Assembly: GCA_037924335.1 (NCBI GenBank)
Contig: JAXSMZ010000018.1
Span: forward strand, 1-35,120
Direction: 5' to 3'
Source of the DNA: Aquificaceae bacterium
Lineage (GTDB): Bacteria; Aquificota; Aquificia; Aquificales; Aquificaceae
DNA length: 35,120 nucleotides
In this document: positions 125 to 1,121 of the stretch, in pieces
Layout: every line of letters starts with the position of its first letter
Position numbering within the stretch: position 1 is the stretch's first letter
Made by a program: the position numbers and the translations under genes
Notes under the pieces: generated by a model
What the model saw: only the letters and a program-made list of their open reading frames with translations
Databases searched by the model: none
What the model was told of the DNA's origin: nothing

Positions 125-222
125 ATTTTTATATAGGTTAAGGGCTGAGGGTATTAGAAACTAATCACTGAATATATAGAAGTTTATAGACGCATATAGA
201 AGTTTAGAAACATAAAGACCCC

Positions 223-250
223 TTGACACTTTTGGTTGTATGGATATGTT
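223..250 (+). promoter_or_regulatory. Putative sigma70 promoter inside the mini-element
   Basis: TTGACA (223-228), 16 nt, TATGTT (245-250). Confidence 0.4.
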
Positions 251-439
251 ATAAGGAGGATAAAGGAGCTATGTGAGACCGCTGGTGTCCAGCTCTACAT
301 AGTTCCTTACACAAGCAGGACTTGTCCTGAATGTGGATATCAGGACAAGATGAACCGCGTAGGTGCGCGGTTCACAAGGGAGCTTATAGTCCCCTTGCCT
401 GCTAAACCTCATTCTGTAGAATATTTTTCTATGGGATGA
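227..439 (+). pseudogene. tnpB: TnpB/Cas12f-like nuclease C-terminal remnant
   Basis: FWLYGYVIRRIKELCETAGVQLYIVPYTSRTCPECGYQDKMNRVGARF matches the TnpB W.Y...I..K....GV....V.P.YTS..CP.CG....NR....F segment. The N-terminal part, the second CxxC and the RuvC-III Asp are missing. Confidence 0.8.
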
Positions 440-441
440 GG
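263..441 (+). ncRNA. Candidate structured RNA (omegaRNA-like scaffold)
   Basis: Five consecutive stem-loops at 263-308, 321-349, 351-374, 375-397 and 407-441. Several use G-U pairs that only form on the + strand RNA. Confidence 0.45.
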
Positions 442-492
442 AACTATATATTTCGCTTTTAAAGAGAAATCTTTCATTAACAATTAGAGTTT

Positions 493-1036: not shown

Positions 1037-1121
1037 TGGGGGTGGAGGGAATCGAACCCTCACGGGGGATCACCCCAGGGGATTTTAAGTCCCCTGCGTC
1101 TGCCAGTTCCGCCACACCCCC
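1037..1121 (-). tRNA. tRNA-Leu(TAA), no encoded CCA
   Basis: Reverse complement gives a GGGGGTG/CACCCCC acceptor stem, anticodon loop CTTAAAA, long variable arm, GGTTCGATTCC T arm and discriminator A followed by TTG. Confidence 0.97.

Follow-up and report, generated by a model that had tools for sequence, protein, structure and literature searches.

A multi-copy, gene-less derivative of an IS607-type tnpB element retaining an omegaRNA scaffold in an Aquificaceae genome

Introduction

Near the start of the window, the 35,120-nt stretch of Aquificaceae contig JAXSMZ010000018.1 analysed here, a series of hairpins lies over a tnpB fragment and prompts us to ask if the DNA here is an isolated guide RNA cassette, a host small RNA or part of a mobile element. 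An earlier note, made from the sequence of the locus alone, proposed a one-off orphan omegaRNA cassette or a domesticated small RNA. We conclude with high confidence that positions 155-447 constitute a 293-bp, gene-less, multi-copy deletion derivative (hereafter mini-element) of an IS607-family solo-tnpB element, which retains both ends and the omegaRNA scaffold.

Boundaries, copy number and genomic context

Copies of the element share AACTAT (in one case AACTGT) and diverge only afterwards, which places the right end at position 447 and the predicted start of the guide at 448; among 43 distinct right junctions, the last two positions are A in 42 and T in 42. The element therefore does not finish with stem 5, as had been assumed, and a guide starting at 442 is displaced by six bases. 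Searched by blastn with both element ends, the source genome (G000) yielded 21 left-end and 23 right-end matches. Classification of 25 right ends gave nine with the loop specific to the mini-element, 12 with a long hairpin (two of which belong to a different, scaffold-poor derivative), two that were too short and two of a second tnpB clade, while ten of 20 classified left ends carry the mini junction and six run into a full tnpB start. The nine right and ten left ends of the mini type contradict a one-off cassette. Several copies hold assembly gaps or sit at contig ends, so that 'about ten' copies is an estimate; only the window copy and one on C4 are full-length and free of gaps, with 99% identity over 298 bp. 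Next to the C4 copy (G000:C4:55003-55299), the opposite strand carries what is left of the 3' part of another tnpB, which has no continuation beyond the element.

In the window, the insertion sits between convergent genes for a DUF2203 protein and dCTP deaminase. These two genes abut in the relative G006, where the element is absent; the intergenic DNA of G006 gave no alignment that would represent the window's own empty allele. Anything similar to the element was found in four of the 60 relatives searched. A tRNA gene with a long variable arm (1037-1121, minus strand; Rfam RF00005, 58.8 bits) lies upstream of the dCTP deaminase gene and appears ordinary. An Rfam search of the element at E values up to 10 gave no match, only this nearby tRNA-Leu being detected.

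The dead tnpB fragment noted under the hairpins is a genuine remnant, its PF07282 match lying just under the cut-off, and comparison with parent ends supports the earlier suggestion of a nuclease-free deletion derivative with an omegaRNA-type scaffold. A small peptide encoded by the remnant was ruled out, as the reading frame is broken in two related mini-elements (L112 and L100). The features of the element are summarized in Table 1.

Table 1. Features of the mini-element and its flanks in window coordinates.
Feature	Position	Strand	Basis
Target motif GTAT, also the predicted TAM; likely crossover core is its final 2-3 bases (AT/TAT), which agree with the 3' end of the element	151..154	+	Empty alleles; 21 left-end matches
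Left end, IS607-type, with short direct repeats TAGAAR at 155, 177, 197 and 205	155..231	+	Repeat search; comparison with L118/L127/L120
Candidate hybrid promoter combining the -35 box of the parent left end (TTGACA) with a -10 box within tnpB codons (TATGTT); start predicted near 257	223..250	+	10/12 matches
Main deletion junction, ~0.85 kb of parent lost	231..233	+	Comparison with parent ends on C34/C19 and C13
tnpB 3' remnant, first CxxC only; related mini-elements lack the frame	236..439	+	PF07282, E 1.6e-5; indels in L112 and L100
Stem 1 of the scaffold (5' hairpin)	263..308	+	Two-sided changes in 2/11 outer and 1/5 inner pairs
Long-range helix 315-319/398-402 around stems 2, 3 and 4	315..402	+	Invariant in 16/16, hence without covariation support
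Scaffold stem 2	321..349	+	Two-sided changes in 3/10 pairs
Stub of stem 3, the base left from a ~93-nt parent hairpin after 54- and 15-nt deletions took its top	351..374	+	Two-sided changes in 3/8 pairs
Nexus-like stem 4; predicted pairing of its loop ATAGT (386-390) with 443-447	375..397	+	Two-sided changes in 4/6 stem pairs
Terminal stem 5	407..441	+	Two-sided changes in 4/11 pairs
Right end and scaffold 3' end, AACTAT	442..447	+	43 distinct right junctions
Predicted guide, flanking host DNA	448..467	+	Inferred from boundary

Target motif and predicted guides

GTAT is present at the 21 left-end matches in the source genome, with variable DNA upstream of it. The motif likewise precedes the left end in 56 of 58 junctions, again with variable DNA further upstream, a count with some circularity, since a GTAT-containing pattern was used to retrieve many of the loci. 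An insertion in G017 (L025) could be compared with empty alleles: in nine of 14 foreign-genome loci both flanks aligned and were separated by precisely four bases, namely GTAT in six and GCAT in three, and the closest allele, with a 100% identical left flank, has GTAT. A second insertion site also shows a single GTAT in its empty allele. Empty alleles contain one GTAT and filled alleles read GTAT-element-CTAT, with no target duplication beyond the shared core. The target of the element is GTAT instead of the TGAGG motif read from the locus earlier, and the cleavage target TGAGG+AACTATATAT proposed on that basis is consequently wrong. Following the rule that the TAM of a TnpB equals the target of its transposase (10.1101/2023.11.20.567912), GTAT is also the likely TAM of the cognate TnpB.

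For 23 of 25 guides, including that of the window copy, no site of GTAT plus 12 nt with at most one mismatch was found in the source assembly; for the remaining two guides, one site was found, mismatched at 6-7 of 20 positions. The 102 exact 16-mer guide matches in viral contigs include none that follows GTAT, and no relative of the mini-element's TnpB was found in these contigs.

Three further observations concern target sites and flanks. The right flank, and hence the guide, of the mini-element at G000:C27:12333 matches a repeat on C30, C1 and C11 (88-97% over 59-60 nt) that is preceded by TGGT or TGAT, not GTAT, and is either a near self-target or the product of a mis-joined scaffold. Related solo-tnpB elements in G005 (L184, L192 and L205) have left junctions with GTGT, not GTAT, and a right end that is still AACTAT, so the target of this lineage may differ. 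Elements of two tnpB clades, L201 in G101 and L316 in G026, share identical first 35 nt of right flank and therefore would carry the same guide, representing either one site filled by different cargo or a rearrangement.

Structure of the scaffold

All five stems described by the earlier note across 263-441 are present, and the fold of 257-461 (-96.2 kcal/mol) clearly exceeds shuffled controls (z -9.44, with none of 200 dinucleotide shuffles as good). The fold of 257-447 reached z -10.4, and z -8.7 and -8.4 against two types of synonymous-codon shuffles (0/200 each). In addition, a long-range helix (GCAGG 315-319/CCTGC 398-402) and a likely pseudoknot (ATAGT 386-390/ACTAT 443-447) had been overlooked.

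The hairpins are inherited from the 3' end of intact tnpB and are the omegaRNA scaffold of the parent. The last ~260 nt of intact tnpB genes fold with z -5.6 to -9.3 against codon controls, and when the full element was scanned in 150-nt windows only the last two passed z -5, the very last being strand-biased (z -6.4 sense, -0.7 antisense). Structure across the zinc-finger codons, reaching further than the earlier note had expected, belongs to the intact parent gene rather than to the cassette. As in TnpB omegaRNAs, the structured scaffold lies at the tnpB 3' end and finishes at the right end of the element.

Covariation, for which the earlier note had asked among homologues, was found in the parents: across 16 parent ends, two-sided changes affect 17 of the 61 pairs, compared with 5.9 +/- 1.7 in shuffles and at most four in slid controls, although few independent events lie behind this count because 12 of the 16 ends are close kin. 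The set was drawn from 44 collected ends plus L186 (15 plus 1), with mini-elements, gapped and partial ends left out, and 99.0% of its cells pair. The predicted pseudoknot can pair at all five positions in 16/16 ends, four of its pairs being invariant and one varying on one side only; IS607 TnpB omegaRNAs are reported to form a pseudoknot with the last five bases of the scaffold (PMC10711439; 10.1101/2023.11.20.567912). An alternative helix (inverted repeat I24), formed between the right end and the 3' arm of stem 1, is disfavoured by L189 and L186, in which a two-sided change preserves stem 1 and breaks this helix.

Origin by deletion and trimming

The mini-element descends directly from a solo-tnpB element of 1.2 kb that shares its ends and is complete in G017 and other Aquificaceae records. 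Through the main deletion, a position ~30 nt upstream of stem 1 came to follow the left end, which breaks off three bases past the -35 box. Further trimming removed 6 nt and then 54 + 15 nt. Of the third hairpin, ~93 nt in the parent, a 9-bp stub is left, and the scaffold is shorter by 75 nt, at about 185 nt instead of ~260 nt. Every other helix and the predicted pseudoknot partners were spared, only the top of one hairpin being lost. Intermediates with the long hairpin intact occur on C12 and C2, and parent, intermediates of 366-372 bp and the trimmed 293-bp form make up a size series side by side.

The diverged mini-elements L112 and L100, from other samples, have lost the frame and kept the fold (z -8.5 and -8.7, respectively), and their stub shows one C-G to U-A swap. 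Compared with the window copy, L100 has eight pair-keeping and two pair-breaking changed positions and L112 has eight and four, some of these changes stemming from parent variants. As the structure is inherited, it does not by itself demonstrate selection in the mini-element; the pair-keeping changes hint that such selection may act.

A second mini-element family, derived from the other tnpB clade, is represented by a 311-bp element on C8 of the source genome and several copies in G102. It carries a promoter-like TTGACA-17-TATATT directly before its first hairpin, and one of its loops is also trimmed. That this layout arose twice independently is the strongest argument for a role of the RNA. 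The C8 element (G000:C8:49459-49769, minus strand; L313/L314), with related copies in G102 (92% identical) and at L115, is situated just upstream of a gene whose start resembles yebC, and its expression is more plausible than that of the window copy. Deletion derivatives without most of the scaffold also exist, with one to two copies each (G000:C4, 379 bp; C17, 466 bp; L143; L122).

Affiliation with the IS607 family

A metagenome scan with the left end returned 26 loci. At L118/L127 (one locus in two assemblies) and at L120, the same first 22 bases are followed by an IS607 serine-recombinase tnpA, which is frameshifted in L118/L127 (three pieces, two of them scanned) and partial in L120; matches to NF033518 had E values of 2e-20 to 2e-22, below the whole-protein cut-off. 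The L118/L127 element measures 2096 bp, with two frameshifts breaking tnpA and an open tnpB frame, which in L127 comprises 479 codons; at its right end, L127 terminates in GGAACTAT. It carries a different tnpB clade from that of the mini-element, and no tnpA was seen beside the mini-element's own clade among the loci examined.

No terminal inverted repeat joins both ends among the 25 longest inverted repeats listed, and short direct repeats, as found in the left end, are described for IS607 ends (PMC6188088). A GG core is given as usual for IS607 (PMC6188088; PMC13565253), the latter, a review, stating that 'most' members end in GG. In the mini-element's family, GG is absent from ends and target and the core is AT or TAT, which marks an IS607 variant and lowers confidence in the family label only modestly. 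Membership of the IS200/IS605 PATE-like elements was rejected on the basis of the absence of PF01797 from the assembly, the lack of a folding signal at the end (z +1.3 for the first 150 nt of the full element) and the serine recombinase within the same ends.

The 19 best IS607 tnpA loci of relatives do not share ends with the mini-element by blastn. L334 (G032:C1:290900-293900) combines an intact IS607 tnpA of similar N-terminus with tnpB, has related but different ends, and its tnpA is a candidate enzyme for this lineage. A literature search returned no report of this family or of a GTAT-targeting IS607 in the texts covered, which is not proof of absence from print.

Promoter, transcripts and proteins available in trans

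The promoter-like TTGACA-16-TATGTT reported upstream of the hairpins is present at 223-250, but three such sites occur in positions 1-1200 against 2.4 expected by chance. The idea that deletion brought the left-end promoter before the scaffold holds for the -35 box and fails for the native TACAAT -10 box, which was removed: the parent left end has TTGACR-17-TACAAT, and since only the -35 box was kept, the -10 box of the mini-element is a weak new one (4/6). L112 and L100 have TATATT at this position. Improvement of the -35 box in the mini-element was ruled out, as the parent left end on C34 already has TTGACA. No terminator-like site was found at the locus.

RNA run X1, a metatranscriptome, gave contigs over 311-450 only; these derive from another organism, as host genes received no coverage, and as contigs they cannot show transcription. 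One of them is exact over 311-396, across the first mini junction, with a differing upstream variant. RNA run X2 gave nothing on the element. TnpB has been reported to trim the 5' end of longer transcripts (PMC10278001), and therefore read-through from the upstream gene could replace the weak promoter.

An intact cognate tnpB, which the earlier note called for in this genome or close relatives, occurs as complete copies in G017 and G005; the source assembly has overlapping stop-free pieces and no single complete copy. The pieces span residues 1-232 and 149-366, are 95% alike in their overlap and cover the whole protein, with the expected catalytic and zinc-finger motifs. Six parent-type left ends are present in the source genome. 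Within the assembled contigs, none of which is shorter than 7.4 kb and many of which are broken at this element, no transposase was found by PF00239, PF01797 or NF033518, or by tblastn with the L127 pieces; NF033518 gave one weak N-terminal match (E 3e-6), of a kind present in nearly all relatives. Excision may have come to a halt, since the assembled contigs contain no tnpA.

Proposed function and alternative explanations

We lean towards a reading in which the mini-element makes a guide RNA that loads the family's TnpB in trans and directs cutting of the empty site left by excision. An IS607 serine recombinase acting in trans would move the mini-element through the AT/TAT core, and transcription would start at the hybrid promoter near 257 or arrive by read-through from the upstream gene. 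The trimmed scaffold would still bind TnpB from full-length copies, and the complex would cut GTAT plus the flank from 448 after excision, upon which repair from the sister chromosome would restore the element. The filled site would escape cutting because the guide-matching DNA there follows CTAT, not GTAT. Such a retention model has been shown for IS605 and IS607 elements (PMC10055086; 10.1101/2023.11.20.567912).

A working guide is supported by deletions that keep helices and pseudoknot partners and remove one hairpin top, by the fold kept in diverged mini-elements without a frame, and by the second family, which likewise begins just before its first hairpin. It is weakened by the loss of 69 nt of a parent-conserved hairpin that may be needed, by the four predicted pairs broken in L112 against eight pair-keeping positions, by scaffold-poor derivatives, one type of which exists in two copies, by the deleted native -10 box with its 4/6 replacement, and by the absence of tnpA and of a complete tnpB copy from the assembly.

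Alternatively, the mini-element could be a passive passenger that spread owing to its shortness and its two ends, the scaffold being baggage that is silent or was disabled by trimming. We regard this as rather unlikely and as the main competitor. The tops of DNA hairpins are prone to deletion, parents fold as strongly (z -5.6 to -9.3), the -10 box is weak, the copies are young so that little decay is expected, and IS607 excision requires only ~60 bp per end (10.1101/2023.11.20.567912). However, a mere passenger does not readily account for two independent families that both start just upstream of the first hairpin, for 9-10 ends of the scaffold-complete type against two copies of the scaffold-poor type in the source genome, or for one-sided Watson-Crick/G-U swaps that persist in frame-less mini-elements.

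In an improbable alternative, the RNA would be produced and would bind TnpB, cutting would fail with the trimmed scaffold, and about ten copies would act as decoys that titrate TnpB from full-length elements. High copy number and the 69 nt of conserved hairpin lost would fit, whereas the pseudoknot partners and the nexus-like stem, which other IS607 TnpBs require for activity (PMC10711439; 10.1101/2023.11.20.567912), are intact and a benefit to the mini-element is not evident. A domesticated host small RNA or terminator, suggested by a strong fold between convergent DUF2203 and dCTP deaminase genes, is very improbable and largely refuted by absence from the orthologous locus, where the G006 genes abut, and by copies at unrelated sites, occurrence of anything similar in only 4/60 relatives, the lack of a terminator-like site or Rfam match, and the multi-copy, recently mobile, IS607-type nature of the element.

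Extending the guide RNA reading, we tentatively envisage, at less than even confidence, a thermophilic IS607 lineage whose recombinase target and TAM switched from a GG type to GTAT, in which gene-less, self-promoted guide cassettes would have arisen twice, one of them shrinking from 260 to about 185 nt by losing a dispensable hairpin top to become a natural minimal omegaRNA that hijacks TnpB in trans. Parent, intermediate and trimmed forms occurring together offer a ready test of whether gene-less mini-elements borrow TnpB to hold their place. For a TnpB of ~367 aa that belongs to a hot-spring family and has GTAT as its predicted TAM, the natural deletion marks out a scaffold segment that is likely dispensable, and an IS607 family with an AT core would help to explain target choice by these recombinases.

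Comparison with known systems

Gene-less elements encoding omegaRNAs (PMC10055086) and standalone omegaRNAs acting in trans (PMC10691335) have been published. Like the PATE-like gene-less IS elements (Meers et al., PMC10055086), the mini-element has no protein gene, keeps both ends and the omegaRNA, and is expected to rely on TnpB of other elements in trans; those elements belong to IS200/IS605, with a Y1 transposase and hairpins at their ends, whereas the mini-element has IS607-type ends with direct repeats. The mini-element shares with the standalone omegaRNAs of OMEGA systems (PMC10691335) a mobilised omegaRNA without effector or transposase and an effector elsewhere in the genome. Trans function was demonstrated for the latter, while the mini-element is known from sequence and has a scaffold 75 nt shorter than its parent.

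In agreement with CboIStron (10.1101/2023.11.20.567912), ISXfa1 (PMC10711439) and IS607/IS1535 (PMC6188088), a serine-recombinase tnpA occurs inside the same ends, the left end has direct repeats and there is no full target duplication. The last TAM bases are likewise repeated at the scaffold end (TGGG/UCGG in those elements, GTAT/CUAU here), and a pseudoknot with the last five bases is predicted for the mini-element. Contrastingly, its family targets GTAT with an AT/TAT core instead of GG and has no intron, the ~260-nt parent scaffold lies almost wholly in the tnpB frame, with the stop 8 nt from the end, and the mini-element itself lacks tnpA and tnpB. The RAGATH-18 reRNA (PMC11061315) is also a structured guide RNA of an IS607 TnpB, but lies outside the coding sequence, whereas the scaffold of the mini-element overlaps it and has no Rfam match. 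Thus, the concept is published, and the mini-element represents a clean bacterial example and a variant of it rather than a new system, distinguished by its non-GG target, its stepwise natural trimming and a second, independent mini-element family.
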